64,000 nt of DNA from Candidatus Cloacimonadales bacterium (GCA_963677495.2 CAXXOU010000004.1:1344001-1408000); one strand, 5' to 3'; counted from the first letter of the stretch, positions 5,895 to 57,685 are shown. Numbers and translations: made by a program. Notes: generated by a model not told the origin, from the letters alone.

Positions 5895-5989
5895 CTTGGA
5901 AGTCTCTTGGGTAACCCTTGGTAAACACTTGGCTAATCCTTGGCCTAATTACCAAGAATTACCCAACATATCCCCAAGTTATAACCAAT
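5895..5989. repeat. 11-bp-periodic inverted array (CTTGG x5, then CCAA(G) x4)
   Basis: CTTGG at 5895, 5906, 5917, 5928, 5939; CCAAN at 5952, 5963, 5974, 5985. Confidence 0.9.
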
Positions 5990-6157
5990 CTGGGATCACT
6001 AATTATTGCTGGAATAAGAAAGAGCAGAGAGAGCCTGAAAAAAGGTTTAAGCATGTGTGAATACTCTACTGTGCATTCAATTACATCTTGAGCCAAGATA
6101 TTCCTTGCATACTTAAATGAATCAAATATATCTGCTAAAAAAGCAAACGGAGTTATT

Positions 6158-7156
6158 ATGAAGAATCTTTATCTACTATTAATCATTACTTTACTATTAT
6201 TAGTCGGTTGTAAAGACCCACAGTTTTCTGATATACAAAAAGTGGATGCTTATGCTCATGAGATCAAGTTGCCACCCCCGTTTTCCAGTCAATTTGCAGA
6301 ATACTCTACAATGTGTTCATTTGGAGATAATTTGATGATAATTCCACAGTATCCTCATCTGCTTGGTGAAGATGGAATTCCCGGAAGAGCATTAGTAATA
6401 AGTAAAAATCTTATTTCAAAGTATGTTGCTGATAAATCAGAGATTCCAATTAATGTAGATGTATATGACTTTATGGGAATTAAAATACTTGAAGAGATAG
6501 AGTTTTATGAAGGTTTTGAAGCTGTTGCAACTGATGGCAAAAATTTCTATTTCGCAATCGAAACAGGTGGAGAACAACCAAGTACATATGCGATTAAAGC
6601 AACTCTTGTTGATGGAGCTAAGAAGCTTGAATTTGAGAAAGATTCATTAACAAAGCTAGAAACCCCAATCACATTGAACAATGCTAGTTATGAATCTTTA
6701 GTTCTTTATAAAAACAGACTTTTTTTTGGATATGAAGGTAATGGTGCAAACATTAATCCTAATCCTTATATGTTATCCACAGATTTAAACTTCAAAAATC
6801 ATAAAAAAGTTAATATGCAGAACTTAGAGTACAGATTAACAGATTTCACATCAGTAAATAGCAAGGGTGAGATATATGCAATCAATTACCATTGGGTTGG
6901 TGATACAAAGAAATATAAACCAATTGATGACCAGATAACCGGTACAGATTACAGTCAAATTGGTTTAGAAAGGTTCATCCCTATGAAGTTTAAATCAGGT
7001 AGATTAGTTCCGGATCCCAAGAGACCATATCTTAGTATTCCATATAAAGGGCGTAACTGGGAAGGAGTTGAATACTTAGATGACGGCATAATTGCTGTAA
7101 CAGATAAACATCCTAATTCTATCCTAATGTATTTTTATGAAGAAAGTGACATGTAG
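6158..7156 (+). CDS. Hypothetical lipoprotein, possibly a beta-propeller
   Basis: Lipobox LLLVGC; SD GGAG; repeated E(G/A/S)(V/L) strand motifs. Confidence 0.65.
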   Translation: MKNLYLLLIITLLLLVGCKDPQFSDIQKVDAYAHEIKLPPPFSSQFAEYSTMCSFGDNLMIIPQYPHLLGEDGIPGRALVISKNLISKYVADKSEIPINVDVYDFMGIKILEEIEFYEGFEAVATDGKNFYFAIETGGEQPSTYAIKATLVDGAKKLEFEKDSLTKLETPITLNNASYESLVLYKNRLFFGYEGNGANINPNPYMLSTDLNFKNHKKVNMQNLEYRLTDFTSVNSKGEIYAINYHWVGDTKKYKPIDDQITGTDYSQIGLERFIPMKFKSGRLVPDPKRPYLSIPYKGRNWEGVEYLDDGIIAVTDKHPNSILMYFYEESDM

Positions 7157-7244
7157 GTCATTTAATAGTGGTAAATAATTATTTTCTGGACAAATAAGCG
7201 GTCGAAAAAACTATGGTGGCAAAACGAATACACAGGAGTATTTA

Positions 7245-8729
7245 ATGACTGACGTAAAAGCAACAGATCAAGTTAAAACTAACACTGCTGATGATTATCA
7301 GAAGATGTTAGAGAAGTCCTTCACTCAGCCTACAAAACAGAGAAAAGGTGATGTAGTAGAAGGGGAAATCATTAACATTAATGAGAATGATATCTTTGTA
7401 AACTTAGGTGGAAAAGTAGATGGCATCGCTGCTAGAGCTGATTTCGCTGATAAAGATGGAAATCTCGAACTTAAAATCGGTGACAAACTTTCCGGTTTTA
7501 TCGTAGAAATCAAAGATTCATGCATCTCTATCGCACGTTCTCTCTCTAAAACAAATGTAGATAGATCTGCTCTTAAAGATGCTTTTATAAACAAGCTTCC
7601 TGTTAACGGTAAAGTTACTGCGAAGGTGAAAGGTGGATATAGTGTTGACTTACTTGGAGTAAGAGCATTCTGTCCTGTTTCACAAATCGATGTACGTCCT
7701 TCTGATAACGCTGAACTCTATGTTGGTAAGACTTTTGATTTCAGAGTAATCGAATTTGAAGAAAGAGGAAGAAATATTATTGCTTCCAGAAAAGCTATCC
7801 TCGATGAAGAACAAGCAGCTATGAAAGCTAAATTGCTTGAAAACCTTAATGAAGGTGACGTAATCGAAGGTACAGTTAGACGTTTCACAAACTTCGGTGC
7901 ATTTGTAGATTTAGGTGGATATGAAGGACTTCTTCATGTATCTGAAATCTCTTGGGCACACGTTGCAAAACCTGAAGATGTACTCGAAGCTAACCAGAAA
8001 ATCGAAGTTAAGATTATTGGTCTTCAGAAAGATAAAATCTCTTTATCACTCAAACAGCTTCAAGCTAACCCATTCGAACAAGCACTTTCTGAGCTTAACG
8101 AAGGTGATGACAAAGAAGTTAAAGTTCTTCGCTTACACCCATTTGGTGCATTTGTTGAGATTATGCCTGGTGTTGAAGGTCTTATCCCTGTTTCAGAGAT
8201 GGCTCGCGGCAGAATCATCAAACATCCAAAAGATGTTCTTACTTCAGGTGATATTGTAGAAGCAAGAATTCTTCGCATCGATCCTAACAACCAAAAGATT
8301 TCTCTTTCAATGAAAGCTTTACAACCAGACCCATGGGCTAATGTAGCTGAAGCTATCAAAGAAGGCGACGTTATCGAAGGTATCGTTGAAACAAATACAA
8401 AACATGGTGTTTTTGTAACTATTCGTGAAGGCCTCACAGGTCTCTTACCTATCTCAAGAATCAAAGAAGGTGAGCAGTTCAATACTGGTGACAAAATCGA
8501 GTTAAGAATTACAAGAATCAATGTTGAAGACAAGAGAATCTCATTGAACTATGTTGATGCTCCGGATGAGCCAGAAAAGCCACGTTTCAGAAGAAACAAT
8601 CAGGACAGAGACAATAACAACAGAGATTTCAGACGTCCTCGTAATAACAGAAGAGGCGATCAGTCTTGGCGTAAATTCGCTACCGATAATGCTGATGTAC
8701 CTGAAGATAATCCATTTGCTGATTTATAA
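7245..8729 (+). CDS. rpsA: Ribosomal protein S1-like protein with five S1 domains
   Basis: Five S1 repeats (e.g. FGAFVDLGGYEGLLHVSEISW); SD AGGAG; could be an rpsA paralog. Confidence 0.75.
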   Translation: MTDVKATDQVKTNTADDYQKMLEKSFTQPTKQRKGDVVEGEIININENDIFVNLGGKVDGIAARADFADKDGNLELKIGDKLSGFIVEIKDSCISIARSLSKTNVDRSALKDAFINKLPVNGKVTAKVKGGYSVDLLGVRAFCPVSQIDVRPSDNAELYVGKTFDFRVIEFEERGRNIIASRKAILDEEQAAMKAKLLENLNEGDVIEGTVRRFTNFGAFVDLGGYEGLLHVSEISWAHVAKPEDVLEANQKIEVKIIGLQKDKISLSLKQLQANPFEQALSELNEGDDKEVKVLRLHPFGAFVEIMPGVEGLIPVSEMARGRIIKHPKDVLTSGDIVEARILRIDPNNQKISLSMKALQPDPWANVAEAIKEGDVIEGIVETNTKHGVFVTIREGLTGLLPISRIKEGEQFNTGDKIELRITRINVEDKRISLNYVDAPDEPEKPRFRRNNQDRDNNNRDFRRPRNNRRGDQSWRKFATDNADVPEDNPFADL

Positions 8730-8747
8730 ACAATCACTATAGATATT

Positions 8748-8776
8748 AAAAGGGTAGCTTTTTGCTACCCTTTTTT
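8748..8776 (+). terminator. Intrinsic terminator
   Basis: AAAAGGGTAGC/GCTACCCTTTT hairpin plus T run. Confidence 0.85.
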
Positions 8777-8992
8777 GTTTTGACAAACTTTCATTATCTA
8801 TCCTGCCTTTGTGGTTTCTTGTTTTATTCTGACGGGACTCTGCTTAAAGTCTGAAATCCACACTTACTTTGCTCCTGCTCCTCCCCCGGGTCTCATTGTA
8901 AAACCCTGTAACTGAAATAACTCAGAAATGGTTTGACATTGGTTATATGAGGAGTAATGCTTGGTAAGATATAAAAAAGGAGTTGTTTATCT

Positions 8993-11956
8993 ATGATATC
9001 AGATAGTTTTGGCAGTCTACTCCGACAATCCCGATTTGGAAGTAATGATTTTCATCGTCTTATGAAGAAAAGAGTAAGTCGTATACTCTTGGTTTCATCT
9101 TTTTACGACGCTTATATATTTGAACAAGATGGTAATTTCTCTGAGCAGATCTTTGGAGAATATAGAGAGTATAACCTTTCAGCTGTACCAAGAATTGTGC
9201 ATGTTCCAACTATTGAAGATGCTCTAGCTAAATTAGATGAAGATCATTTTGATCTGGTTATCACTATGATGAGGATTGGAGAAACTATCCCCTATCGTCT
9301 TAGTAGCACTATTAAAGAACGCTTTCCTGAACTACCGGTGTTACTACTATTGAATGTTCAGTCTGACATTGCTTTGATTAGGAGTAATCCTGATAAAATG
9401 AAGTACATTGATGATGTTTTCCTTTGGAATGGTGATAGTAAACTATTCCTAGCGATGATTAAGAGTATAGAGGATAGGATTAATCTGGAAGAGGATACAA
9501 AAAACAGCTTTGTAAGTGTTATCCTGATTGTGGAAGACTCTGTTAATTTCTACTCCTCTTTCCTACCGCTCATTTACACTGAGATTATGATGCAAACTCA
9601 AAGAATCATTGAGTCTGAAATCAACGATATGAACAAGAGATATAGGATGCGTACTCGTCCAAAGGTTATTCTGGTTCATAACTACGAAGATGCGTTAGAT
9701 GTATACAAGAACTATAAAGAGTATATTATCGGTGTAATCACTGATATTGAGTATCCGGTAAACGGTAAACTGAATCCTCAAGCGGGAATCAATCTAATGA
9801 AGCAGATAAGGTCCTCTGATGGGCATTTGCCAATATTGCTACAATCATCTGATACACAATGGGCTAATTATGTAGAAAACTTCCATGCTCAGTTTGTAAG
9901 TAAGCAATCAAAGTCATTGCTTAAAGACCTAAAGAAATTTATACATTTCTACTTGGGTTATGGTGAGATTATCTTTTGCGACGAGCGTGGTAATGAGTTT
10001 ACTCGTGCTAATACACTGAATGACTTGGAGAAATGCCTTAATACTATCCCGGACTCCTCACTTCTGTATCATAGTAATTATAATCACTTCTCAACCTGGT
10101 TAATGGCTCATGGAGAGATAACAGCTGCAAGAAAGATAAAAGAGATACGACCCTGGGTTTTCTATACAACGAAAGAACTGAGAAACTATCTTAGAAGTAT
10201 TTTCAGAGAAGTTAGGATTGAGAAATCCAGAGGTAAGATTGTAAACTTCAACCCTAGTAACCTTAAGATAAGAAATCAGATTGTGAAGTTGTCTGAAGGG
10301 TCTTTAGGTGGTAAAGGTAGAGGTCTAGCTTTTCTAAATAATCTGCTGACTATTATTAGTAATGAAGAGAAATATGATTCCATTTTTATAACATTGCCCT
10401 TAACAGCCATTATTGGTACTCATGAGTATGATGACTTCATTGAAAATAACACGATAACTACTGCCATAACTCTGCTACCGGATGAGGAGATTGCCACAAT
10501 CTTCATGAAAGGGAAACTGTCAGTCGAACTTTTAAGAAAACTGGATATTTATCTTGATACAATTAGAAAACCAATTGCTGTGAGATCATCAGGTTTATTG
10601 GAAGATTCTCAGGCTCAACCTTTTGCAGGTATCTATTCTACCTATATGCTTCCTAATAACCATGAAGACAAGGAAGTACGATTAGAACGATTAACACAAG
10701 CTATAAAGCTCGTTTATGCTTCAGTTTATATGCGAACAGCACGATCTTACATTGAGAGTGTTAATTATAAAGTCGAAGAAGAGAAGATGGCTGTAATCAT
10801 TCAAGAAGTTGCAGGCGCTGAACATAAAGGTTTATATTATCCCCATATCTCCGGAGTCGGTCAGTCCTATAACTTCTATCCAACACACAGTCTTGAGCAT
10901 GAAGACGGTATCTGTTCAATGGCAATGGGACTGGGAATTTCTGTTGTTGAAGGTAGCAATATATACCACTTCTCCCCTAAGTATCCCCAAGTCCAATCCA
11001 TAAGTGAAACTGAGATTGTATCTAAGTCGCAGAAACATTTCTTTGCCTTAGACTTGAACAACCACGAATATAATATTCTTGATGGTGAAGATGCAAATCT
11101 GCAACGATTAAGCATCCAACAAGCTGTGCCACATAAGACCTTAACCCATTTAGTTTCAACCTGGGATTATCAGAACAACCGTTTAGTTGATGGTTTCCAG
11201 GAAAAGGGAATGAAGGTTCTTACTTTTGCCAATATTCTTAAATATGACCATATTCCTCTTGCAGAACTGTTAAATGATTTTCTTAAGATTGGTCAGATGG
11301 CTATGGGTGCTCCTGTTGAGATAGAGTTCGCTGTTACTTTACATAGGACGATGAACAAAAACGCTACTTTCAATATCCTACAAATAAGGCCACTCACTAC
11401 TAACTATGAACAGGTGAGAATTGATACTGATTCTCTTAACCCTAATGAGCTGTTCCTTCAAACAACTAGCAGTATGGGATTTGGCAAGAAAGATAACCTC
11501 TATGATATTATCTTTGTTAATCCTCAAAGGTTCAAGAGCACTGAAACTATGGATATGCTGGAAGAGCTTAATGAGCTTAATGCTCAAATGAGAGAGCAAA
11601 ACAGGCCATACATCCTCATCGGATTCGGACGCTGGGGTACAAGGGATGAATTCTTAGGAATTCCTGTAAAATGGGAGAATATAGATAAAGCGAACGTGAT
11701 TGTTGAAGCTGAACTTCCTGACTTCAGAGTTGACCCGTCCCAAGGCACACATTTCTTCCATAATATGGTTGCTATGAATATTGGTTATTTCTCTGTAAGC
11801 TATGATAAGAAAGGTAACAATATTGATTGGGAGTTCCTAATGAATCACCCTCGTCGTAAAGAGGGTAACTATTTCGTTCATATAAGGAGTCATAAGCCAT
11901 TTGAAGTTATGATGGATGGTGAGACCAATACAGCGATTATAAAGAAAGATTTTTAG
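8993..11956 (+). CDS. Receiver-domain-fused PEP synthase/PPDK N-terminal (ATP-grasp) family protein
   Basis: Receiver-like segments (ILIVEDS, VITDIEYP); GSLGGKGRGL, IAVRSSGLLEDS..QPFAGIY, PVEIEFA, GRWG, SQGTHFF motifs. Confidence 0.8.
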   Translation: MISDSFGSLLRQSRFGSNDFHRLMKKRVSRILLVSSFYDAYIFEQDGNFSEQIFGEYREYNLSAVPRIVHVPTIEDALAKLDEDHFDLVITMMRIGETIPYRLSSTIKERFPELPVLLLLNVQSDIALIRSNPDKMKYIDDVFLWNGDSKLFLAMIKSIEDRINLEEDTKNSFVSVILIVEDSVNFYSSFLPLIYTEIMMQTQRIIESEINDMNKRYRMRTRPKVILVHNYEDALDVYKNYKEYIIGVITDIEYPVNGKLNPQAGINLMKQIRSSDGHLPILLQSSDTQWANYVENFHAQFVSKQSKSLLKDLKKFIHFYLGYGEIIFCDERGNEFTRANTLNDLEKCLNTIPDSSLLYHSNYNHFSTWLMAHGEITAARKIKEIRPWVFYTTKELRNYLRSIFREVRIEKSRGKIVNFNPSNLKIRNQIVKLSEGSLGGKGRGLAFLNNLLTIISNEEKYDSIFITLPLTAIIGTHEYDDFIENNTITTAITLLPDEEIATIFMKGKLSVELLRKLDIYLDTIRKPIAVRSSGLLEDSQAQPFAGIYSTYMLPNNHEDKEVRLERLTQAIKLVYASVYMRTARSYIESVNYKVEEEKMAVIIQEVAGAEHKGLYYPHISGVGQSYNFYPTHSLEHEDGICSMAMGLGISVVEGSNIYHFSPKYPQVQSISETEIVSKSQKHFFALDLNNHEYNILDGEDANLQRLSIQQAVPHKTLTHLVSTWDYQNNRLVDGFQEKGMKVLTFANILKYDHIPLAELLNDFLKIGQMAMGAPVEIEFAVTLHRTMNKNATFNILQIRPLTTNYEQVRIDTDSLNPNELFLQTTSSMGFGKKDNLYDIIFVNPQRFKSTETMDMLEELNELNAQMREQNRPYILIGFGRWGTRDEFLGIPVKWENIDKANVIVEAELPDFRVDPSQGTHFFHNMVAMNIGYFSVSYDKKGNNIDWEFLMNHPRRKEGNYFVHIRSHKPFEVMMDGETNTAIIKKDF

Positions 11957-11979
11957 CAATATCATGCATTTTATGAGAT

Positions 11980-12010
11980 AACGTTGCATGGTTTTGAACC
12001 ATGCAACGTT
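11980..12010. terminator. Perfect 14-bp inverted repeat between convergent genes (bidirectional terminator or REP-like hairpin)
   Basis: AACGTTGCATGGTT-ttg-AACCATGCAACGTT. Confidence 0.65.
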
Positions 12011-12047
12011 TAACCTGGGAACACTAATTGATTGTTTTCAATTGTAT

Positions 12048-13139
12048 TTAATTCTTGAATATCCAGTCCAACCCTGTTTTTAATGATGATCTGTCTATAG
12101 TATGTGCACCTTCAAATCTAACATACTTAAGATTATTGTTTAGCATCTTTAGTCGATCAACTGCATCATCGCTCTTTGCAGGTTCTACTATCTTATCCTC
12201 AGTACCATGAGCTATAAATATTTTCATACCAGTACCTTTGGCTATCTCCTCTTCGGATATCTTCTCATGTAACCAACCACCGAAAGCTAATGCACCATCC
12301 ACGATATCAGGATTCCAGAAAGCTGTTTGTAAGCTTAAACCACTTCCTTGCGAAAAACCAAACAAGTAGACGTTCCCAACCATATATTTACCTTTATAAT
12401 GATCAATAACATCTCTTACATACTGATTGGTAGCCATTTCAACTCGTTCATTATACTCCATATCCTCACTCCAATCAAACCAGGAATACCCAACTCTATT
12501 GCCTGATTGGAAAGCATAATGAGCTTCAGGACAGATATAGATAACATTATATTCTTTAATTGTCTTCCAAATGTTTGAATAATTCTTAGCATTATCTCCC
12601 CAACCGTGAAGGCCGATAATTACATCATAGGTCTTTGCTTCATCAAACTCATCAGGTAAATACACAAAGCTTTTGGCAAAACTCTTCGTTGGGATATTAT
12701 CAACAATGAGCTTCTCATCCATACCATTACCAAGATAGTCATTGATTTTGTCTGTAATCTCCTGGAACTCAGGGTACTCTTTAACCTTATCAAAATCGGT
12801 ATCTTTAAGGACATGTGCATAGTCTTCGTATCCTGTTTGGAACGAGTACTTTAGAAATTTTGTTGCGTTCTCTCCGTCACCTTTAAGTCCATAACAACAA
12901 GCTAAATTATACAATCCAATCGAGTTCTTCTTATCCTGTTGTAAAGTAGCAGTATATACTTCGATTGCTTTATCAAGGTCCCCTTCCTGGTAATGCTTCC
13001 CGGCAACTTGATATAGTGAATCAAGATTAACAAATTCGTATTCAGATAAACCATGATTTGACGTTTCGACAATAACTGTGCTATTAGATGCACAACCTAT
13101 TAAAAAAGCTAATAAAATGAGACTTATAAAGTATTTCAT
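12048..13139 (-). CDS. Lipoprotein with TPR repeats and an alpha/beta-hydrolase (phospholipase/carboxylesterase) domain
   Basis: ATG at 13139 after SD GGAGG; lipobox FLIGC; TPR YNLACCY; LHGWG, GFSQG nucleophile, HGTED..V, GAH. Confidence 0.8.
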   Translation of the reverse strand: MKYFISLILLAFLIGCASNSTVIVETSNHGLSEYEFVNLDSLYQVAGKHYQEGDLDKAIEVYTATLQQDKKNSIGLYNLACCYGLKGDGENATKFLKYSFQTGYEDYAHVLKDTDFDKVKEYPEFQEITDKINDYLGNGMDEKLIVDNIPTKSFAKSFVYLPDEFDEAKTYDVIIGLHGWGDNAKNYSNIWKTIKEYNVIYICPEAHYAFQSGNRVGYSWFDWSEDMEYNERVEMATNQYVRDVIDHYKGKYMVGNVYLFGFSQGSGLSLQTAFWNPDIVDGALAFGGWLHEKISEEEIAKGTGMKIFIAHGTEDKIVEPAKSDDAVDRLKMLNNNLKYVRFEGAHTIDRSSLKTGLDWIFKN

Positions 13140-13211
13140 CTCTACCTCCAACCCCATCGATAAGTGAATTGAAATCAGTTGTCAAATAGTTTTAGGGATT
13201 TTTTAATATGT

Positions 13212-13240
13212 AAAAAAGCCCTATCCGAAGATAGGGCTTT
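13212..13240 (-). terminator. Intrinsic terminator of the selenoprotein gene
   Basis: AAAGCCCTATC/GATAGGGCTTT hairpin; A run on + strand gives a U tail on - strand. Confidence 0.8.
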
Positions 13241-13259
13241 AAATATGTATCTTTAAGTA

Positions 13260-15125
13260 TTATTTCATATAGATAGTCTTCATGTTTCTTACGAAATCAG
13301 AAGCTGTAACTCTGTAGAAATAGATACCATTAGGTACTGAGTTGTTTCTTGCATCTGTACCATTCCAAGTGATTTTATGATCACCTTGGTTAAGAGTACT
13401 ATTTACAAGAGTGTTGACCAACTGACCTTTCACATTGTAGATTTCAACTTTAACATCATCATTTTGTTTGAGTGAGAATGTAAGGTTAGAAACCTGTGAG
13501 AATGGGTTTGGTGAAATAGAGAGTGTATTGCCGATAGTAGCAACATTCTCATCATTACCTACAGTGCCATTCTCAACGATTACTGTTACAACATTTGAAG
13601 GTTCAGAATTAGTAAGAGGGTTATCATATATAGCTGTTACGTGATAATCATAAGTACCATCAGCAACATTAAAATCTGTATATGTAAGTGTGTTAGCATT
13701 TGGAATAGTAGCATGAGAAAGACCGTTCCTGAATAATCTGTATCCGAAAAGGGCACGCTGATCAGTCAGTGGATTTTCCCAGTTAAGTGTGATGTCGTTT
13801 CCATCAGCAACATAGTTTAAACCCCATGGTGCTTGTAACGGAATAATCATATCAGTTGCATTTGATTCTACAAGTGGACCAGGCATAGTATGTTCATCTA
13901 CAGGTAAAACTGTAAACTTAATCATATAGCCAATATAGTCAGCACTGATTTGCATAACCATTGGGTCGTTTGAGTTATGCTCAAATGTCTCCCAGTTTGT
14001 ACCATCTTGTGATTTATACCAAATAACTTCTGTCTCACCTTCCATATCACCATCAAGGTCAACGAAAGTATAACTTGCAGTTATAAACTCATTCTGCATT
14101 GCAACACCTGTTAGTGTTACAGTATCAGCCATTGGAGCCTGGTTAGTAAAACCAACACCATTTAATGGAATTTCAACATACTCAAATCCAGCAATGTCAG
14201 TAGAGATTGCGATTAAACCAGTATACTCCATATCAGCTGTAGGTGCAAATGAAACTGTATACTGCTGCTCTCCACCCGGTGCGAGTTGAAGAGTTGCAGG
14301 ATCAGTCATAGTGTAACCGTCACCAACTAATGTTAATGAGAAGTTAGCTGTGTTTGGAGAGATGTTGATAACTTTGAAAGTTTTCTCGAATACACCACCA
14401 ATGTATGAATCGCCAAAATCCATACCTGTAGATGTTACTGGAGAGCTACCACATTCAGCAGCTTGATAGATATAAGGATATGCTGAATCAAATGATTGAA
14501 TCATAACATACCCGGTAAGTGTTTCAGGATCCCATGATTGATCAACAGCAAGTTCCATACTGTAAGAACCTGAATCACCTGCTGTGTTGATAGGTAAATC
14601 CATATCTCCATAAGCTACAACACTACTGAAATATTCATCACTCTGATGTCTTGCAATAACAAAAACAACTTTGTTATTACCATATTGTAAATCATTCTCA
14701 AGCTGTACATCAGCGATTACATTGTAACCTGTAGCAGTTGGAACAAAGAAACCTGCTAATGCAACAGGGCTTGGATCGTCCCAAAGGTTGTTATAGATTG
14801 GTAAATATTGTGATGCGTAAGCTGTAGTAGCAGCACCAATTTCAAGCTCAACGCCCTGGAAAGCACATTGAGGGATACCATTAGATAATGATCCAACTAA
14901 ACCACGACGGGCAGAATAGTTAGGGGATGCATTAGCTGTGTCACCTTGCCAAATAAGGGGAACAACATTAGGATGGTTTTCATATAACGTAAGCAGACCT
15001 GCTCTTGCTCTTGGACAGTATCCTCACCAACTTTCCGTGAAGACTTCGCCCACAACATTTATCTGTGCGGCAAATGCTGATAAAGCAAGAAGCAATAAAG
15101 CGAAAAGTATTAGACTTCTCTTCAT
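13260..15125 (-). CDS. Secreted selenoprotein (621 aa, Sec34): Omp28/thioredoxin-like UxxC domain, Ig-like domains, FN3 domain and T9SS-type CTD
   Basis: SD AAAGGAG then ATG at 15125; MKRSLILFALLLLALSAFA signal; EVFTESW-TGA(15026-15024)-GYCP; frame otherwise open and continuous into ORF 14603..13260; SECIS-like hairpin downstream. Confidence 0.85.
14991..15004 (-). promoter_or_regulatory. Candidate bacterial SECIS element
   Basis: mRNA GAGCAGGUCUGCUU hairpin; core GCAGGUCUGC follows a 21-nt spacer after the UGA and matches the E. coli fdhF SECIS apical core. Confidence 0.75.
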
Positions 15126-15504
15126 AATTCACTCCTTTCTTATCGAAGATTTAACATAATATTGAAAAACCTTTGATAGTTGTCAAACAATTTTTGAGTA
15201 TTTCCTACATTTTATTTAGTGTCTTGATTCTTTACACTGTTAATCCCCAATACCCCTCTATAAAAGGGTATAGAGTAATTATTTACCAATAAAACTATAC
15301 ATATTCCAAGCCCAGCGCCCCCTTTTTTATGGGTGAAACTAGTATCACATTCTTTACCAAATCATTGCGTTTCTTCTAGAAAAGTTAGAAATTTGTTAAA
15401 CAAAAGCCTAAATATTTGGTTTAGCATTAGTTACTATTATGTTTTTTCTTGACTCCAAATTTCATTATGCTTAATCTTGTTTTAACAAAAAGGAGGAAGT
15501 TGTT

Positions 15505-16656
15505 ATGAAAAAAATCATACTTCTTTGTTTAGTGACTCTGATATCGCTTAGCGTGTTCGCTCAAAGCCCACGCTTAATGAGTATGGGAGATGTAGAAGGT
15601 TATTTAGCAGATTCTGAAGATATCTTCACATATCCTGCAACAATTCACAAATATGGTAACACTGCCTACGCTTATCTTGGTGGATGGTCCGGTGATCAAA
15701 ACAACTACAATTTCGGTGTAAATCTAGCAATAAACGAATTTATGTTAGGTGCTTACTTTAACAAGCCTGTTTTCGAATATGCAACAGATCCGGAGATAGT
15801 ATTGCCAGGTGTAGTATTAGACAAGCAGATGGAGTTATTCTTTGGTTTCAAAGAAAATATGGCTATCTATTTTGCTCTAGCTATGGATGGATTAACTGAA
15901 CCTGGTATTGATGCTGACAATGAGGATACAGAAGTTGCAATGAATTTTGCATTTGGTTATGGTTATTCAACTGATAAAATGGACATCGGTGTTCATTTCG
16001 CTATGCCAGTTTTTGCATCAGAAGTATATGTAGCTGATGGTGAATCTATTGAAGAAAGTGAAGCTGGTTTTGGATTTGGAATTGATGGAAGAATCACTTT
16101 TGCAAAAGTAGGCAAAGTAGATTTTGTTGGAAAAGGTGCATTAGGTTTCTTCGCTAGTGCATATGACGATGGTGTCGATGATACAAAAGATATTGAGAAC
16201 ACAATGTTCGGTTTAGATCTTGGTGTTGCCGGTATTTATAATCATGATGAGAACAATAAAGTCATTTTTGGTTGCACACCATTTGCAATTAATATGGATA
16301 ATAATGACGACGGTACAACAACAAACACAGAACTTGAGCTCTTTGCTCCTGTTTTTAACATTGGTTTGGAGTCAAAAGTATTGAGTTGGCTTGTAGTTCG
16401 TGCAGGTGCAACTCAAGAATATTGGTCAACAACAGAAAATGAAGAGATAGAAGTTGCAGATGCTGATAACATTGAGAACACAACTACTACATGGGATAGT
16501 GCATTTAACTATAACATGGGTATGGGCGTTAAATTCAAAAACTTCTGCCTTGACTTCACATTCGAAGAGGACTTCCTACATAACGGTCCGAACTTCATTA
16601 CAGGACAGAATACCGGAGATATAGCCGGTGAAATGATGCTTAAGTACAAGTTCTAA
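15505..16656 (+). CDS. Probable outer-membrane beta-barrel protein
   Basis: Signal peptide; alternating amphipathic strands; C-terminal aromatic LKYKF; SD AGGAGG. Confidence 0.65.
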   Translation: MKKIILLCLVTLISLSVFAQSPRLMSMGDVEGYLADSEDIFTYPATIHKYGNTAYAYLGGWSGDQNNYNFGVNLAINEFMLGAYFNKPVFEYATDPEIVLPGVVLDKQMELFFGFKENMAIYFALAMDGLTEPGIDADNEDTEVAMNFAFGYGYSTDKMDIGVHFAMPVFASEVYVADGESIEESEAGFGFGIDGRITFAKVGKVDFVGKGALGFFASAYDDGVDDTKDIENTMFGLDLGVAGIYNHDENNKVIFGCTPFAINMDNNDDGTTTNTELELFAPVFNIGLESKVLSWLVVRAGATQEYWSTTENEEIEVADADNIENTTTTWDSAFNYNMGMGVKFKNFCLDFTFEEDFLHNGPNFITGQNTGDIAGEMMLKYKF

Positions 16657-16675
16657 TTTATTAACTAATAATCTA

Positions 16676-16704
16676 GGCCTGCTGATTTTTATCCAGCAGG
16701 CTTT
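16676..16704 (+). terminator. Intrinsic terminator
   Basis: GCCTGCTG/CAGCAGGC stem plus TTTT. Confidence 0.7.
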
Positions 16705-16837
16705 TCTATTTATAGTTCATTACTCGAAACTCTATTGTTATGAGTATAAATTCACCTTTGATAATTTCTACAAGATTGCTTGACTATTTTTTTTACCTTC
16801 TGAAAGTAGGGAAAAATAACATTTAGTTGAGGAGTAG

Positions 16838-17161
16838 ATGATGGATAATAATCAAGGGCTACAGATAAATTTTGAGAACCTTATGAAGCTTGGTTTTGCT
16901 GTTATTGATGTTAGATTTAAAGAATATGAAGTTACCAATTCCCATTATAAATATGTGATTGCTGCTGTTGATTCTGATAGAGAAGAGTTTTACACACAAA
17001 TGCTTAAAACATATACTGGAAAAGAGTTCAAAATAGGTGAAGTTCAAGATGTCTGGATTGCTATCTTAGAGCACAAAATCAAAATGAGCATGATTCTCAA
17101 ACGTGATATTGCTATTAAAGTTGCAGCAATGGATTATGTGGAGACTCGTCTAGCTCAATAA
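16838..17161 (+). CDS. Small protein resembling the DUF4032 family
   Basis: W..ILEHK..MS....RDI...AA.DY motif recalled from DUF4032; SD GAGGAG. Confidence 0.55.
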   Translation: MMDNNQGLQINFENLMKLGFAVIDVRFKEYEVTNSHYKYVIAAVDSDREEFYTQMLKTYTGKEFKIGEVQDVWIAILEHKIKMSMILKRDIAIKVAAMDYVETRLAQ

Positions 17162-17163
17162 AT

Positions 17164-17565
17164 ATGGAAAAATCGCTTTTATTAATCAAACCGGATGCAA
17201 CTAAGGCTCGTAAAATCGGAGAGATTATCTCAATCCTGGAAGGAAAGAAATACAAAATTGAAGAGTTGGTCATGTTTAAATTTACTAAAGAACTCGCAGA
17301 ACAGTTCTATGCTGTTCATAGAGAAAAAGAGTTCTTTAAAGATTTACTAGGATTCATGTGCTCAGGAAAAACTGTCGCTATTACAGTGTCCGGACGCAAT
17401 GTTATATCAAGACTTAGGCATTTAATCGGACCAACTGACCCTGAAGAATGTGGACCGGAATCTATTCGAGGACGTTTTGCAACTTCAATTAGACGAAATG
17501 CAGTTCATGCATCAGATTCTGAAGAAAGTTTCAAGGCAGAACATAGTGCTATTTTTGGCTGTTAA
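17164..17565 (+). CDS. ndk: Nucleoside diphosphate kinase
   Basis: LLLIKPDA, FY.VH..K.FF, IGPTDP, SIRG.F, NAVHASDS. Confidence 0.95.
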   Translation: MEKSLLLIKPDATKARKIGEIISILEGKKYKIEELVMFKFTKELAEQFYAVHREKEFFKDLLGFMCSGKTVAITVSGRNVISRLRHLIGPTDPEECGPESIRGRFATSIRRNAVHASDSEESFKAEHSAIFGC

Positions 17566-17581
17566 AATATAACTTTTATAC

Positions 17582-17610
17582 GGCCTATCCTTTTTGATAG
17601 GCCTTTTTTT
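17582..17610 (+). terminator. Intrinsic terminator
   Basis: GGCCTATC/GATAGGCC stem plus T run. Confidence 0.85.
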
Positions 17611-17632
17611 ATTCCTACTGCTTTCCATTTAA

Positions 17633-17957
17633 CAAAACGCAATCATCCCACTGTTTTCCCACTGTGCACGCACTGTGCACCCAGTGAAACAGTGGGTTGA
17701 CAGTGCCTTCACAGTGGGATCACAGTGCGTGCACAGTGCGTTGGTAATTTGAGCAGTGAAAGTGCCTAAAAAGGGCAATAAATATAGCTAAGCTATTGCA
17801 AATTGCACTGTGTGTGTTAATCTAAAGCTGTCGCAAAAGCGACCAAAGGGAGATGGGCGAATAGCGCGAAATGGTAAAGATACAACGCTATGAGTCCAAC
17901 TCGTTTACTCGCTATGACTCCGATGTTGTAAGTCATTGCAAATGGCACTGAGTATGT
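17633..17957 (+). repeat. Composite intergenic repeat, copy 1 (11-bp-periodic CACTG/CAGTG array plus 29-bp direct-repeat module)
   Basis: Colinear similarity to 39859-40115 (+) and 57361-57685 (-). Confidence 0.9.
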
Positions 17958-18212
17958 CACCCTGAGCAAAGTCAAAACCGTCTTTCAACTGGAGTATGAC
18001 TGACAATTGACTTTCCTACTATCTCTCATAGGGCATCTTTGTAGCAGGCTTAGTCTATATGCATTTTTAGAAGTCCGTTTCCCCAACGCAAGATTCCCAT
18101 AAGACAAACTCCCAGAAATGCAGTAATCGTTATCAAACAAGCTAAGAAAAATAATGATTGACAACAACAATGATTAGTTCAGTATTTATTAAACATGAAA
18201 ACGGAGGTTGTT

Positions 18213-18770
18213 ATGTTAGAAGAACAAGAATTTGAGCATGTTGATGCTGAAGAGATAGATAAAGATGATATAAAAGATATCGAGGATAAGATCGTCTTTA
18301 CGGATGAAAAGAAACTCTTTCAATTCTATGAGAAGCTACGTTGCCATTGTACTCAGTCTGCCGGAAAAAAGACCGGGAAAATTGGCAAAGAAGTAACAGA
18401 ACTACTTCTATTCTTACCCGATTTCTTTATGCTGACTGTTAGACTTTTTATAGATAAGAGAACCCCACGAAGAGTGAAAGTAATTTTAGGTGGAGTTATA
18501 GCTTATCTTCTGATGCCTTGGGATATTATACCTGATTTCATCCCTATCATCGGTTATGTTGATGACCTTGTTTTGGTTGTGATTGCACTAAACAGTATGT
18601 TAAATGAAATTGAACCTGAAGTTGTACTTGATAACTGGAGTGGTAAAGAAAAACCGTTGACCATTATTCAACAGGTTATAGCTGTGACTGAGAAGTTTCT
18701 ATCTAAAAACATCCTTGTGAAGATAAAGAAGATAGTAACAACACTATTATCGGAGAATGAAAAGAGATGA
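18213..18770 (+). CDS. YkvA/DUF1232 family membrane protein
   Basis: AYLLMPWDIIPDFIPIIGYVDD motif; ATG at 18213 after SD GGAGG. Confidence 0.85.
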   Translation: MLEEQEFEHVDAEEIDKDDIKDIEDKIVFTDEKKLFQFYEKLRCHCTQSAGKKTGKIGKEVTELLLFLPDFFMLTVRLFIDKRTPRRVKVILGGVIAYLLMPWDIIPDFIPIIGYVDDLVLVVIALNSMLNEIEPEVVLDNWSGKEKPLTIIQQVIAVTEKFLSKNILVKIKKIVTTLLSENEKR

Positions 18771-19363: not shown

Positions 19364-19372
19364 GAGGATAGA

Positions 19373-39482: not shown

Positions 39483-39530
39483 ATATCTACGATTCCGTAC
39501 TCATCTCTCATCGAAGTTGTATACTTAACA

Positions 39531-39600
39531 ACGGGTAAACGACGGGTTGACCACGGCTCCCGTGGATTAGGCGTGGTTTACCCGTGGTTCATCTGTGGTT
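39531..39600. repeat. 11-bp-periodic inverted array (ACGG x3, then (C/T)GTGG x4)
   Basis: ACGG at 39531, 39542, 39553; CGTGG at 39561, 39572, 39583; TGTGG at 39594. Confidence 0.8.
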
Positions 39601-39858
39601 GGAAATCTTTCTGGAGTTAACCGACTACTTGTCAGGACATAGCTTCAAACAAAACAAAGACTTAGGTCGGTTTATCTGCCCACATAAACTCGGACTTACG
39701 TCGCAGCGATAACGTGACAGTGACGCAAGAACGAAACTGGCTTCTAGTTGTCGGAATTAGCGATTCCCACTTTGTTGTGTGTGTGAATCACTTCTTCCTT
39801 AGTCATCAAACATCTACAACTCTTCTGCGATAACACAAACTTTAACTAAACTCTTTAT

Positions 39859-40115
39859 CAAAACGCAGACATCCCACTGTTTTCCCACTGTGCACGCACT
39901 GTGCACCCAGTGAAACAGTGGGTTGGCAGTGCCTTCACAGTGCGTGCACAGTGCAGACACAGTGCGTTGGTAGATAGAGTAGTAAAAGAGTGTGAATAGG
40001 GCAATAAATATAGCTAAGTTATTGCAAAAGGCACTGTGTATGTCTACGATAGCTGGAGTCATAGTAAAAGTGTCAAAAACACAACGTTATGACTCAAATG
40101 TTGAAAGTTATGGCA
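39859..40115 (+). repeat. Composite intergenic repeat, copy 2 (shortened 3' module)
   Basis: CACTG at 39875, 39886, 39897; CAGTG at 39908, then 39916-39960 every 11 bp; same linker as copy 1. Confidence 0.9.
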
Positions 40116-44093: not shown

Positions 44094-44096
44094 TTG

Positions 44097-48686: not shown

Positions 48687-48734
48687 GGTATCCTCCTATA
48701 ATGTTAATTAAGAGGATAATTTTCTAGTAGTCAA

Positions 48735-52800: not shown

Positions 52801-52948
52801 TATTTCCTCAATTTGTAAGTATTTTATGTTTAAAATAGTATTGCTACTTCAATGTAGCATATTGATTTATATCACTGTCATATCTTACTGATATAAAATA
52901 GATATCTTATTCTCTATGTCAATGTCTAAATTAGTTTAGTACAGACTT

Positions 52949-53151: not shown

Positions 53152-53200
53152 GGCATGGTTATCGAATTTGCAACAGCCAAGTGAAAGATGATATAAGCAG

Positions 53201-53977
53201 TTACTCAATCAGCCCAGAAATAAGCCTACATAAATCCATTTTATCATTATCAATATGTTCAAGACCATAAGCATCAAGGAAGATATTTTTGTATTTATCA
53301 GTCTTTAAATTGAATTGAAGAGTCCAAACTCCCCAGAAAAGATCCCAATGCCTGTCCCCTACTCCTCCTGAACCTAAGTCTACAAAACCCTTTAGCTTAA
53401 AATCGTTTAGTATTATATTTGGCAAGCAGTAATCACCGTGAAGAACAACTTCATCAGTACTAAGATGTTTCAATTGATTGAATCTGTCTGTTATTGTCGC
53501 AATTGGTTCAGGTAGAAAGATTTTGTCTATCTTCTTCATTTCAAGGTTGAGTTCTGCTTCATGAATCATTTCACTCATGCGATTTGGGAAAGGACAGTTA
53601 TCTGTAGGGAGCTCATGTATTAATCTAAGACTTTCACCATAAACTTTAGCTAATTGCTTAGGGTTATCAAGATGAATCTTATTAATCCCATCTTCACCCT
53701 TAATTTCTCTTGTGATAAGATAATCATGCTCATCAATGGTCTTATAGAACACAACCTCAGAAGCTAAACGATGTTTATGGAAGAATTTTGTAAGCTCTGC
53801 TTCTCGAAGGAGTCTGCCCATTTTCTCGACTTTTAGATATAGGCTTTCCTCTCCCTTTAAAAGATATGTTTTCGCTAACTCTGAGCAACTACTGTCATAT
53901 AGTGTTTTGTTTTCTAAGAACGGATGTAACTCTTTAGGAAAATCATTTAACACCAAATCTATTTTCTTTCTTTGCAT
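53201..53977 (-). CDS. Aminoglycoside 3'-phosphotransferase (APH(3')) family kinase
   Basis: LYLK, HGDYCLPNII, GFVDLG..GVGDRHWDL; probable start MQRKKI at 53977. Confidence 0.8.
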   Translation of the reverse strand: MQRKKIDLVLNDFPKELHPFLENKTLYDSSCSELAKTYLLKGEESLYLKVEKMGRLLREAELTKFFHKHRLASEVVFYKTIDEHDYLITREIKGEDGINKIHLDNPKQLAKVYGESLRLIHELPTDNCPFPNRMSEMIHEAELNLEMKKIDKIFLPEPIATITDRFNQLKHLSTDEVVLHGDYCLPNIILNDFKLKGFVDLGSGGVGDRHWDLFWGVWTLQFNLKTDKYKNIFLDAYGLEHIDNDKMDLCRLISGLIE

Positions 53978-54000
53978 ACTACTTACCCAACTAGTAAGGC

Positions 54001-55797
54001 TTAATCTTTGTACCAAACATACTCGTATAACCACATAGTTTCATCAACTAATTTTATAAACTCTTCCCGCTTATTATAGTAATCAAGACCTTTTGAACGA
54101 GATGCAACATCATGTACAAAGTCAAAATCTTCTTCTGTCATGTTATTGATATTATTCATCATCTCCCCATACTTGGCTACAGCTACAGAAAAACGAAAGT
54201 CATCACTACATGCTTCAAAAGCAGTTACATTGGAGTCTATATTCTCAATAAGAGATTTCTTAAGAGGTTTATTCTTTGGTCGATAGCTAAATACAACTTC
54301 TGCTAAATCATTTGAGTCTTTATTTTCCCATGATTTGAAAGTCCCACTACACTGTTGAAAGCCTAAGGAATCATACACAGACTTATCATAGTCAACTCCA
54401 ACCGGTATTATCTCATACAATCCGGTAACGGAATGACCGGGATAAATATCGGTGGATTCAAAATCAAGTTTGGCAGCATATTTTAAAGGTTCTTTATCAG
54501 AACTTAATAGTCTAAAAGCTTGAACTTGATGGGGATTAAAGTTGACTTCTAATTTAACATTATTCGCAAGAATGTCACTAAATAAAGCGTCATTATCGAA
54601 CAACTCTACAGCTTCTCCAATATTTCTAACACTATGAAAATCAGCGTCTATCTGATCTGCAAAGAACTCAATTTTTCTATTGTTTGCATCATGTGGAGCG
54701 TAACTTATTAGGGAGACTGGAACATTGCTTTTAGAATAATTCGAAACTAAATCTTTCAAGTGAACATTTTCTTGCTCATCTTGCAAGTATCCGCAGTTAG
54801 AGAAAATGATTATACGGTTTTCGCCTTTTTGAATATAGCTTTTTTGAATGTCAATATAAGCTTTATCTAAGATTTTCGAATAATCAGTACATGAATTTTG
54901 ATTACCGGTTATCTCTCCAATAGCATATATAATAATGTCTTTTTTATCACCTGATGTTGTTGGTAATACTCTGTCGTCTCTCTGTCTTAATAGAATTGAA
55001 ATCTTATCATTCTCATCCAGATTTCTTGCTATCATTCTTAGTGATTCTCTCACTAACGGCATATGTGACATCATATAAGGATCAACAATAACAACTAAGT
55101 TCTTGGATTGGTCCAAATTAGGAATGTTGTTTTTTGCTTTTATGCCAATATGAACTATAAAACTATCTGCATTCCAAGGACACTTTCCTATCTCAGAATA
55201 GATTTTAAACAGATTATTATGTTTAGGAAGGGGGTAATCATACTCAAAATAGTTAACTAACTCTTCGATAATGATAGCTCTTTTACTCTTCTGATTTCTA
55301 GAGGTGATTCTTTTTTTCAGGATATCAAACGAATTGGTTTTAGGATTTATCGGAAATGAAGATGTTGTCTTTTTCCGAAAAAGCCCATCAATAAAATGAC
55401 CACGATGACTTATCGATTCTGAGTATCTGATGAAGAGATTCATTCCCCCTGTAGTATATTTATGAAGTTTAATCTTATACAAAGCCGTTGTATCTGCATA
55501 GACACTAACCTTCTTCTCCAGTCGATTATCATTACGACTTTGGATCCGGACAGTGTGTTCACCTAAGGGTAGATGTGAATAGAAGTACTTTCCGAATTCG
55601 TTATTGATTTTTCGGGCTGAAAAATGATTGTTATCAATCTGTAGACCTAAACTTCCATCATATAATGCACCATTTTCATGTCTAACTTCAAGAATTATTG
55701 CACCTAACTCCTTTGTCTCATCTTGCAGGTTAAGCTCAATTGCAATTGAAAGTTTTATAACTAAAAGCAGTAAAGCTATAGTCCAAGTATGTTTCAA
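54001..55797 (-). CDS. Secreted YfbK-like vWA/DUF3520 protein with degenerate MIDAS
   Basis: IEELVNYFEYDYP, PWN, V.FNP..V..FRL, GHSVTGLYEI, DFRFS.AVA; TTG start. Confidence 0.72.
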   Translation of the reverse strand: MKHTWTIALLLLVIKLSIAIELNLQDETKELGAIILEVRHENGALYDGSLGLQIDNNHFSARKINNEFGKYFYSHLPLGEHTVRIQSRNDNRLEKKVSVYADTTALYKIKLHKYTTGGMNLFIRYSESISHRGHFIDGLFRKKTTSSFPINPKTNSFDILKKRITSRNQKSKRAIIIEELVNYFEYDYPLPKHNNLFKIYSEIGKCPWNADSFIVHIGIKAKNNIPNLDQSKNLVVIVDPYMMSHMPLVRESLRMIARNLDENDKISILLRQRDDRVLPTTSGDKKDIIIYAIGEITGNQNSCTDYSKILDKAYIDIQKSYIQKGENRIIIFSNCGYLQDEQENVHLKDLVSNYSKSNVPVSLISYAPHDANNRKIEFFADQIDADFHSVRNIGEAVELFDNDALFSDILANNVKLEVNFNPHQVQAFRLLSSDKEPLKYAAKLDFESTDIYPGHSVTGLYEIIPVGVDYDKSVYDSLGFQQCSGTFKSWENKDSNDLAEVVFSYRPKNKPLKKSLIENIDSNVTAFEACSDDFRFSVAVAKYGEMMNNINNMTEEDFDFVHDVASRSKGLDYYNKREEFIKLVDETMWLYEYVWYKD

Positions 55798-55805
55798 ATT
55801 AGTCC

Positions 55806-57146
55806 CTACTTCATCAATATCATTTTCTTAGTATCATTAGTTATCTTTGATTTAAGTCTATAGAAGTAAACACCAGATGCACATTTTTTGTTTTTTTTAT
55901 CCAGACCTTCCCAAACAATTTGATGCTTACCTTCAGTAAAGCCTTTGTAGTTCTTAACTAATTGACCACGGATATTGTATATGCTCAATTCTGCTCTGTC
56001 GTTTTTAGCTACATCGAAGCTGATTGTAGTAGTTGGATTGAACGGATTGGGGTATGCATTGAATAATGCTGTCTGCATTTGGGGTTGAGAACCAATCTCT
56101 TCATCAATGCCAACTGATTGTTCTAATGCAACAAGATATGGATAACCATTATTCAATACTGGATTGATAGTCCAAATATCCTCTGTCCCATTATTTGTCT
56201 CTCCATAGAAATCCCAAAAAAGATTAGTATAAGTTGTTACATCTCTCATTTGTGCTTCAGTACAATCAATGACATTGGTTAATATGCTTGTACTATCTTC
56301 AAAACACGCACCAAGACTGTTAATGTCACTACTCCAAACACAATTCTCAATCAATCCTGAGTTCAAACCAACAAGGGCATGAACATTTATAGGATTATTA
56401 GCAACCAAAGAGTAAGAATTACTCAAAATAGAAGAGTTGGAATTAACACCTACTAATCCCCCACAATTGCCAGAAGTAGTATCCATTATTCCGTAATAGA
56501 AGCAATCGTTGATATACGAGTTGGAGTTTTCACAAGCAAGCCCACCACCAGTAACTTGAGAGTTTATATTCACTTTACTTGAACATCTACTAACAATTGA
56601 ACCATTACAAGCATAACCTATTAAACCTCCAGCAAATGCACCGTATAGATTTCCGGAAACATGGCAGTTAGTTATCACAGTATTGCCTATTGTCCCTGCT
56701 AGACCACCACATATTCCCCACGAAATAGTAGGAACAGAAAAATCGAATGAAGTCAGTTTTATATTGGCAAACGTTGAATTGAGTGCATATGTCCATAAAC
56801 CCATAATAGTAATTTGAAAAGAATCAGCATTGTTAAAGAATAGGTTAGTTATCTCATAGTCTTGACCATCATAATGCCCTGTAAAAGGTAAATTCCAATA
56901 AGCTATAGGATTAAATCCCTCTCCTCCATTCCAGTTCTCTGTATCAGAAGCATCAATATCAGCTGTCTGTAAAAAATATGAGTTATCATCCCAAACATCC
57001 GGGGTTGTACTTAACCAAAGAAGGTTATCAAGATTTACAACTAAATACGGATCTGTTTCTGTTCCACTACCAGATGGCTGAACACCATCAGCTAAAACGA
57101 ACTGAGATGCAACAACAAATAATACTATCAATAGAATGCTTCTCAT
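55806..57146 (-). CDS. Secreted GLUG-motif protein with T9SS-type CTD
   Basis: GSGT..DPY, GGL.G repeats, NNGYPYL, CTD YPNPFNPTT...YNIRGQLV. Confidence 0.82.
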   Translation of the reverse strand: MRSILLIVLFVVASQFVLADGVQPSGSGTETDPYLVVNLDNLLWLSTTPDVWDDNSYFLQTADIDASDTENWNGGEGFNPIAYWNLPFTGHYDGQDYEITNLFFNNADSFQITIMGLWTYALNSTFANIKLTSFDFSVPTISWGICGGLAGTIGNTVITNCHVSGNLYGAFAGGLIGYACNGSIVSRCSSKVNINSQVTGGGLACENSNSYINDCFYYGIMDTTSGNCGGLVGVNSNSSILSNSYSLVANNPINVHALVGLNSGLIENCVWSSDINSLGACFEDSTSILTNVIDCTEAQMRDVTTYTNLFWDFYGETNNGTEDIWTINPVLNNGYPYLVALEQSVGIDEEIGSQPQMQTALFNAYPNPFNPTTTISFDVAKNDRAELSIYNIRGQLVKNYKGFTEGKHQIVWEGLDKKNKKCASGVYFYRLKSKITNDTKKMILMK

Positions 57147-57360
57147 AACTCCTCCAAGAAATCATTATGCCTTATTCGAATCTCAATACTATTCTCTACA
57201 TACAAATTTTCAATATCAAGTGATTTATTGTTTTTTTAATTTTTAGGTGTTAGTAGTGTATTATCTGTAATACTTCCTTCATACTTAATCATATTTTAAG
57301 GAGTTTACGGGCCTGTCAGGGTGTAGTTCTAAACGAAAACTGATGCAAGTCTGTAAGGGA

Positions 57361-57685
57361 TATACACAGTGTCTTTTTCAATGACTTACATCATTGGAGT
57401 CATAGCGACCGAAAGGAGTTGGACTCATAGTGATGTACTTTCATCATTTTCACTATTCGCCCATCTCCCTATGGTCACTATTGCGACAGCTACAGAAATA
57501 TCTACACAGTGCCTTTACCAATTACTTAACTATATTTGCTGCCCTTTTTGCTTCCTTTCTCTGCTCTATCCACCAACCCACTGTGTTTGCACTGTGCACG
57601 CACTGTGAAGGCACTGTTATCGCACTGTTTCAGTGGGATCACAGTGCGTGCACAGTGGGAAAACAGTGGGTAAACTGCGTTTTGA
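57361..57685 (-). repeat. Composite intergenic repeat, copy 3 (inverted)
   Basis: Reverse complement aligns along the whole of copy 1; CACTG 57579-57623 and CAGTG 57631-57664 at 11-bp steps. Confidence 0.9.

Follow-up and report, generated by a model that had tools for sequence, protein, structure and literature searches.

Phased, orientation-flipping 11-bp arrays in a Cloacimonadales genome belong to dispersed repeat families associated with genes for a ~150-residue protein

Introduction

Bacterial proteins that assemble on regularly phased DNA words have been described in several systems. In parC of plasmid R1, two sets of about five 11-bp repeats lie near the promoter of the gene for their binder, ParR, which binds cooperatively and regulates its own gene (PMC2241845). 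The Escherichia coli origin, oriC, carries two opposite 11-bp-period arrays of low-affinity DnaA sites (PMC6070618), and BldC/Xis-type proteins form cooperative head-to-tail multimers on phased direct repeats (PMC5859096). In REPIN–RAYT systems, a gene bordered by repeats of its own family is accompanied by many extragenic palindromic orphans of about 100–200 bp, which fall into several families per genome and are insertion-sequence targets (10.1101/2021.07.10.451892). Here we examine five intergenic arrays in a 64,000-nucleotide stretch of a Candidatus Cloacimonadales bacterium (GCA_963677495.2 CAXXOU010000004.1:1344001-1408000; the window, meaning the whole stretch), in which a short word recurs at 11-bp steps and then recurs as its reverse complement. 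What is new is the linkage of such arrays to Cloacimonadota paralogues of one unnamed protein family of about 150 amino acids (aa), with candidate word–protein pairs for all three words of the window.

The comparison with parC is confined to geometry and position, that is, 11-bp repeats upstream of a putative binder gene. The parC repeats are all direct, flank the promoter, occur in a single copy and have ParM as a partner, whereas here the arms are opposed, words and paralogues are many, and there are hundreds of orphan arrays. The ribbon-helix-helix (RHH) fold of ParR has no clear match in the linked protein (Z under 4). Unlike RAYT, the linked protein has no HUH/Y1 motif, phased words rather than terminal REP hairpins are conserved, and the gene duplicates with its array. 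The oriC arrays resemble ours in their two opposite arms and in the DnaA boxes that lie beside some of our families, but our arrays are dispersed far from oriC, their diverse words are mostly unlike a DnaA box, and the families of the window lack box pairs. The linked protein also differs from BldC/Xis in having no HTH_17 match, and no such gene lies beside the Cloacimonadota paralogues. DUF6266 (PF19781), an uncharacterised Bacteroidota family, has a similar N-terminal SGK hairpin with helices, and likewise upstream 11-bp arrays, paralogue-specific words and expansions; the Cloacimonadota proteins, in contrast, are about 150 aa long, diverge after about residue 115 and give no PF19781 score. 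We found no description of the arrays, and no paper naming DUF6266, in the literature searched, which is incomplete, subscription papers being mostly outside it.

Results

Five arrays from three dispersed families

Exact word positions place all five arrays where the initial annotation, made by a model from the sequence alone, had put them. The 5895 array has five forward words (CTTGG at 5895, 5906, 5917, 5928 and 5939) and four reverse words (CCAAG at 5952, CCAA at 5963, CCAAG at 5974 and CCAA at 5985), two of the latter matching in four of five letters. The CACTG/CAGTG arrays at 17649, 39875 and 57579 have nine sites each, as had been read. In the first two, three CACTG are followed by a CAGTG that keeps the forward phase and, after a step of 8 bp, by five CAGTG; the third, with five CACTG and four CAGTG, is a minus-strand copy of the same element. 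The 39531 array had been described as three ACGG followed by four CGTGG. Three of each are present, but the fourth CGTGG is degenerate, and the words properly pair as CCACG/CGTGG. Three of the five arrays have a terminator-like hairpin on their left side, again as proposed. The arrays are not an assembly artefact, because contigs from four sequencing runs of one sample match positions 4500–17661 and 17716–18500 with 0 differences; read depth over the 17649 array is about 40–70x background.

Although the five arrays do share one architecture, they are copies of three dispersed repeat families and not independent inventions. The three CACTG arrays belong to a single family of about 190 bp (family A), with 62–66 copies in the 3.41-Mb genome that holds the window (G000). 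Gene content and Atlas taxa assign G000 to Cloacimonadota. Family A is present in 4 of 41 genomes searched, all four of one genus. The CCACG/CGTGG array represents family B and the CTTGG/CCAAG array family C.

The initial annotation had proposed a genome-wide scan compared with shuffled sequence, and a search of Rfam. A strict scan of G000 for flipped arrays gave 91 at period 11 (62 with CACTG, 17 with CCACG and 12 with CTTG(G)), none at periods 5–10, 12–18, 21 and 23, one each at 19 and 20, and two at 22; three shuffles gave none at any period. The period-11 arrays are therefore not due to chance. Rfam held no match for them. A more sensitive lag scan found 299 period-11 arrays, compared with 23, 11, 13 and 3 at periods 9, 10, 12 and 13; 295 of the 299 are outside long open reading frames (ORFs), and they cluster into 13 groups of at least three plus 15 small groups, one group of 48 being a chain of several families. 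We also considered and rejected the iterons of phage replication origins: viral contigs, scanned three times for the pattern, yielded 0, 1 and 0 matches, the one matching array lies in no recognisable initiator gene, and only 4 of the 299 arrays fall within ORFs of at least 450 bp. In the viral match (L001:1360-1560), which lies between genes, CCACGG repeats in 11-bp phase and is joined by a short flipped arm.

Two further regularities accompany the census. Period-7 tandem arrays are also enriched in G000 (20 versus 0 in a shuffle, at four copies), often beside paralogues of the linked protein. Array orientation is skewed relative to local GC skew both in family A (45 versus 21, p=0.004) and in the cluster containing family B (34 versus 14, p=0.006), which may follow gene direction.

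Words and phase are conserved, pairing is not

Across 62 family A copies, word columns are 99.4% identical versus 91.5% for spacer columns, and the forward step is exactly 11 bp in 128 of 129 cases. The earlier statement that spacers vary while word and phase are kept thus holds along one array; between copies, however, the spacers are themselves 91.5% conserved. The array centres, with their phased words, are the most conserved part of the elements, and the ends are less conserved. The family A consensus forms a better fold than do controls with shuffled spacers (z −3.7; z-scores against such controls are −3.7 and −4.8 in the families folded), yet conservation is no higher in paired spacer columns than in unpaired columns (90.7% vs 93.2%), and among changed spacer pairs 128 are broken, 58 are kept by one change and only 4 are compensated. 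Since words exceed spacers in conservation and compensatory pairing is lacking, selection acts on word and phase rather than on a hairpin. These patterns speak for the word in duplex DNA as what matters and against the long hairpin with regular bulges that the initial annotation had offered as one option.

The same data bear on the idea that the array acts as RNA, as a leader or small-RNA hairpin with pairs at each A-form turn, or else is read by a neighbouring Xis/BldC-type protein. Arrays do lie in possible leaders, and an exact 11-nt period is the pitch of the A-form helix. The compensatory signal is nonetheless absent, the arms are unequal and several arrays are one-armed. Genes with HTH_17 are few and far from the paralogues: none of the three in G000 comes closer to a paralogue than about 30 kb, and the four of another genome of the order (G013) are far from its homologues. 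We hold this reading to be very improbable.

In all three genus relatives compared (G001–G003), the two genes that bracket the 5895 array have no array between them, and the orthologous sites retain a terminator-like hairpin; the intergenic gap is 362 bp in G000 vs roughly 85–125 bp in the relatives. Array copies therefore insert, and by this neighbourhood comparison the 5895 copy is an insertion, placed directly behind a putative terminator. At the array sites by ndk and by the CMD gene, gene order differs in the relatives and offers no usable empty-site comparison. No target-site duplication was seen by eye in 23 flanks of a further family (H); the empty sites in the relatives are too diverged to show one. 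Several families have imperfect outer inverted repeats, which are weak in A and B.

Insertion, these inverted repeats, good folding and adjoining hairpin-repeat modules would all fit REPIN- or MITE-like hairpins that a transposase, of Y1 or other type, has copied; the period would then be an inherited relic of no current function. G000 also has 12 transposase-like genes that we take from their motifs to be of the Y1 type. These genes lie 100–18,683 bp from the nearest array (3 of 12 within 700 bp), and, unlike RAYT genes, none is flanked by arrays. Moreover, words are conserved above spacers and pairing is not, and a transposase relic leaves the upstream link in two phyla, described below, without explanation. 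As an account of the arrays as a whole this seems quite unlikely; it may still explain how orphans move.

Period-11 arrays lie upstream of genes of one protein family

Clustering of the G000 proteome yielded 22 paralogues of an unnamed basic protein of about 150 aa. Of 41 genomes of the order, 28 have homologues, which are also found as 366 cluster representatives. An array lies within 900 bp upstream of 14 of the 22 paralogues and downstream of none. For the order, we used 111 homologues fetched from the larger number of matches found, 107 of them with at least 400 bp upstream. Within 900 bp upstream, 44 of these 107 have a period-11 array, compared with 5, 2 and 1 at periods 10, 12 and 13, and 1 of 104 has an array downstream; with a stricter array score the counts are 26/107 versus 1, 1 and 0/104. 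Outside the genus, a period-11 array is upstream of 18 of 67 homologues. The linked arrays stand 15–500 bp upstream of the gene and are often flipped.

The association is also seen from the side of the arrays. In 724 kb around homologues, 23 of 28 arrays are upstream of one. Relatives hold few orphan arrays, so the linkage is clearer there than in G000 (9/10 in G013, 5/5 in G025, 6/7 in G001, 2/3 in G026 and 1/3 in G014). In G000, rare families are over-represented among the linked arrays (p=0.004). Random windows contained no array in 160 kb of two genomes with no detected homologue and none in 60 kb of G004, six in 80 kb of G001, and two in 80 kb of G013, the latter with the words of that genome's gene-linked arrays. 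Taken together, these counts make it very likely that the arrays are linked to genes of this family.

Upstream of many paralogues in G000, G001 and G002, with or without arrays, we also observed a motif ending TATA..TAGAGG at 45–380 bp, possibly a promoter or factor site. In G001, a short CRISPR-like repeat-spacer run adjoins the CMD-family gene (L214, G001:C1:756571-759903).

Candidate pairs of words and paralogues

Words differ from one paralogue clade to another, and in several sets the orthologues from different genomes have the same word (the paralogue tree is a quick IQ-TREE run with SH-aLRT support only). All three families of the window have a gene-linked copy. The family C element at 5869 shares 74% identity across 151 bp with the array lying upstream of G000:C4:946602 (paralogue at C4:946147-946602), and the family B element at 39520 is 81% identical over 84 bp to that upstream of paralogue G000:C4:453917 (C4:453465-453917). 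For family A, the arrays at 17649 and 39875 are 75% identical over 126 bp and 79% over 123 bp, respectively, to the array upstream of G001:C1:852178, whose G000 orthologue (C4:1447755-1448207) is 91% identical and lies 39.8 kb beyond the window. A metagenome pattern scan for close relatives of this family A-linked paralogue confirmed none among 294 pattern matches.

A recent duplicate pair is 96.8% identical over a span that opens at the left edge of the array (−364) and closes shortly after the stop codon (+458); a duplicate pair in G013 shares −380 to +474. Because identity spans array edge to stop codon, array and gene together form the unit of duplication, of about 0.8–0.9 kb.

The linked protein

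The structure model of the protein is confident (pLDDT 95.7) and has strands at residues 14–16, 19–24 and 29–34 followed by helices. Residues 1–40 carry a mean net charge of +5.3. In a 133-row alignment, K2, G14, R33, Y72, L109 and L136 are near-invariant, with no His among them, and no conserved catalytic motif is present. Searches for a known relative were negative throughout: Pfam gave no transposase or other known match (none of the 133 members is among the listed matches), Foldseek against the PDB and PDB sequences matched no known fold or family, and the Atlas returned only unnamed clusters, DUF6266 finding only itself by structure. The best VIA-align scores were Z 4.0 and 3.9, with RHH rows at Z 3.9 (rmsd 2.4, 49 aligned) or below, within noise and barely covering residues 1–38. 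The idea that the three-strand N-terminus resembles integrase arm-binding domains found no significant support. DNA binding is predicted from gene position, charge and word conservation.

A basic N-terminus, the movement of array and gene as a unit, a patchy, multi-copy distribution and the DnaA boxes beside some families would suit a minimal element, virus-like or satellite, whose nucleocapsid-like protein the gene encodes, with the array as nucleation, packaging or replication signal and the orphans as defective mini-elements. No relatives of the protein were found in viral contigs, BFVD or PHROGs, however, and the word patterns occur in one viral contig over three scans. Neither is an excision joint evident between 4500 and 18500 in the contigs of one sample, although contigs drop rare variants. 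We therefore consider a viral or satellite origin decidedly unlikely.

Arrays in Niastella and upstream of DUF6266 genes

A CACTG/CAGTG pattern scan of 185,579 genomes returned 52 loci: 38 in Cloacimonadota, 5 in Niastella, 2 in Bacteroidales and 7 single matches elsewhere, the last being flipped arrays in Pseudonocardia, Marmoricola, Streptomyces, Undibacterium, Sphingobium, Verrucomicrobiaceae and Saccharopolyspora records (L114, L118, L121, L125, L130, L142, L144). The design may therefore extend past Cloacimonadota and Bacteroidota. At two Niastella loci the CACTG array lies about 85 bp upstream of an unnamed 222-aa gene; the other three copies are orphans. Arrays are upstream in 8 of 10 loci of this 222-aa family and downstream in 0 of 9.

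A similar arrangement surrounds DUF6266 genes, for which we took the best-scoring loci returned, kin among them not being independent. Mostly in Niastella relatives, 28 of 30 genes have an upstream array at period 11, compared with 8 at period 10 and none at periods 12 and 13, and 0 of 29 have one downstream. In Bacteroidales relatives the upstream count is 11 of 25 (4 each at periods 10 and 12), and downstream 0 of 27. An even draw of the Niastella order found DUF6266 in 1 of 61 genomes. The Cloacimonadota family aligns to a 58-row DUF6266 profile with an hhalign E of 2.3e-4 (score 30.8, probability 44%, 78 columns), against a maximum score of 18.4 in 30 shuffles; PF19781 itself gave no match to the family in G000 and in five relatives. 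The ~150-aa family thus weakly resembles the DUF6266 N-terminus, perhaps as a distant relative.

DnaA boxes and insertion sequences beside arrays

Several array families adjoin DnaA boxes. Of 154 perfect TTATCCACA boxes in G000, 97 have an array no more than 60 bp away, where 46 would be expected genome-wide. Inverted DnaA-box-like 9-mer pairs beside other array families number 58, all with a 3-bp spacer and none with spacers of 0–2 or 4–11 bp. At least three families adjoin such pairs (e.g. C1:46841, C1:2665, C4:58269), which could be titration or reactivation sites. The TTATCCACA box also occurs beside dnaA. We additionally note a likely replication origin directly after dnaA (G000:C1:869600-869900; L022:1750-2040), with DnaA boxes and near the GC-skew minimum.

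These boxes favour the view that the arrays serve as low-affinity tracks for a host protein, either DnaA or a nucleoid protein, and that the linked genes are no more than targets of regulation by the arrays. The geometry agrees as well: the low-affinity sites of oriC are 9-mers 2 bp apart (PMC6070618). The anchoring high-affinity box seen next to other G000 families is nevertheless missing from families A, B and C, which have no box pair, and in the four arrays checked only one to three positions per array come within two mismatches of the box. The words of gene-linked arrays are, in addition, very diverse, which is hard to reconcile with a single host protein. This explanation is unlikely.

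Two mobile elements are found repeatedly beside arrays. All six copies of one insertion sequence, presumably IS3-like (C2:359474, C2:235670, C2:143089, C3:93959, C4:220987, C4:1237818), start on one and the same side of a CCAAG-type array, 13–47 bp away from its last word and in differing sequences, which suggests tethering by something bound to the array. A second element, which we take to be IS21-like, has 17 copies in G000 (e.g. C1:469954, C4:1304964) and sits repeatedly in repeat elements, among them family A and a site next to a DnaA-box pair.

Features of the window

The features are collected in Table 1. After family A comes a module of about 28 bp that occurs as a direct repeat around exchangeable hairpin-repeat modules (window positions 17789–17955, 40009–40045 and 57360–57535). 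Of 102 copies of this tail module, 97 are within 600 bp of a family A array. Its TAA-N4-TTG core resembles an IHF site.

Table 1. Array elements and adjoining features, in window coordinates.
Feature	Position	Strand	Remark
Intrinsic-terminator-like hairpin of upstream gene	5814..5839	+	Family C element inserted directly after
Family C (CTTGG/CCAAG) element, gene-less	5869..6019	+	Array 5895-5989 within imperfect outer inverted repeats
Family A (CACTG/CAGTG) element core, gene-less	17625..17820	+	Array 17649-17738, nine sites
Two family A tail modules (TAAGT..TTG..CACTG) around hairpin-repeat module	17789..17955	+	
Family B (CCACG/CGTGG) element, gene-less	39520..39610	+	Array 39531-39598
Family A element	39857..40050	+	Array 39875-39964
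Family A element, reversed	57490..57690	-	Array 57579-57668

Discussion

We propose a two-part system in which the arrays supply the DNA component and the ~150-aa family the protein, each paralogue cooperatively binding its own word while orphan arrays spread; we put this at an even chance. Array and gene have been duplicated as a unit of about 0.8–0.9 kb, and gene-less copies have spread into intergenic sites, including the five of the window. On duplex DNA, each paralogue would occupy its own word with a single protomer at every helical turn and build two opposed cooperative tracks, comparable to those of ParR on parC. Binding at the gene-linked array would probably autoregulate the gene, and the ~280 orphan arrays may mark or organise chromosomal sites, whereby their words would be kept under selection. 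The initial annotation had suggested a platform for a DNA-binding protein with paralogous specificities, and this idea gains from the word conservation and from the word types upstream of particular paralogues; the binding itself is a prediction. The roles it named for such a platform, nucleoid organisation or recombinase loading, may apply. Whether paralogues bind their cognate words is, in our estimate, evenly balanced.

Several observations weigh against this proposal. Arrays are lacking upstream of 63 of 107 homologues, whole clades among them. The excess in G000 over genes with gaps of at least 300 bp is weak (64% of 22 vs 46% of 626, p=0.08) and becomes strong only in a subfamily split off after the fact (13/15, p=0.002). 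For family A, the link rests on G001: the CACTG copy near the G000 orthologue is inverted, about 800 bp off and maybe a chance orphan. Two sister paralogue pairs carry different words, and word sharing among orthologues can be plain co-inheritance. The predicted DNA binding concerns a protein that matched no known DNA-binding family or fold. The profile similarity between the Niastella and Cloacimonadota families is not significant (p=0.048), and a host factor takes part at the other families beside DnaA-box pairs.

More broadly, and more tentatively, the arrays and their genes could be minimal selfish modules across Cloacimonadota and Bacteroidota, in which a small protein of unrecognised fold has diversified into many paralogues, each addressing its own word at one site per helical turn; the nucleoprotein track nucleated there would mark the gene and the orphans, and might also copy or package them. 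On this broader reading the modules would constitute a natural library of orthogonal protein–DNA address pairs. The present analysis turns an unexplained repeat class into a directly testable hypothesis with named protein–word pairs, and provides a first functional handle on DUF6266 and its relatives. If each paralogue reads its own word, the family would be a new DNA-binding module with dozens of natural specificities, and a second case, beside REPIN–RAYT, of a gene that keeps a population of orphan repeats, here with no recognisable transposase. With about 295 arrays in 3.4 Mb, and one family a consistent landing site for an insertion sequence, such a system would shape the genome that carries it.

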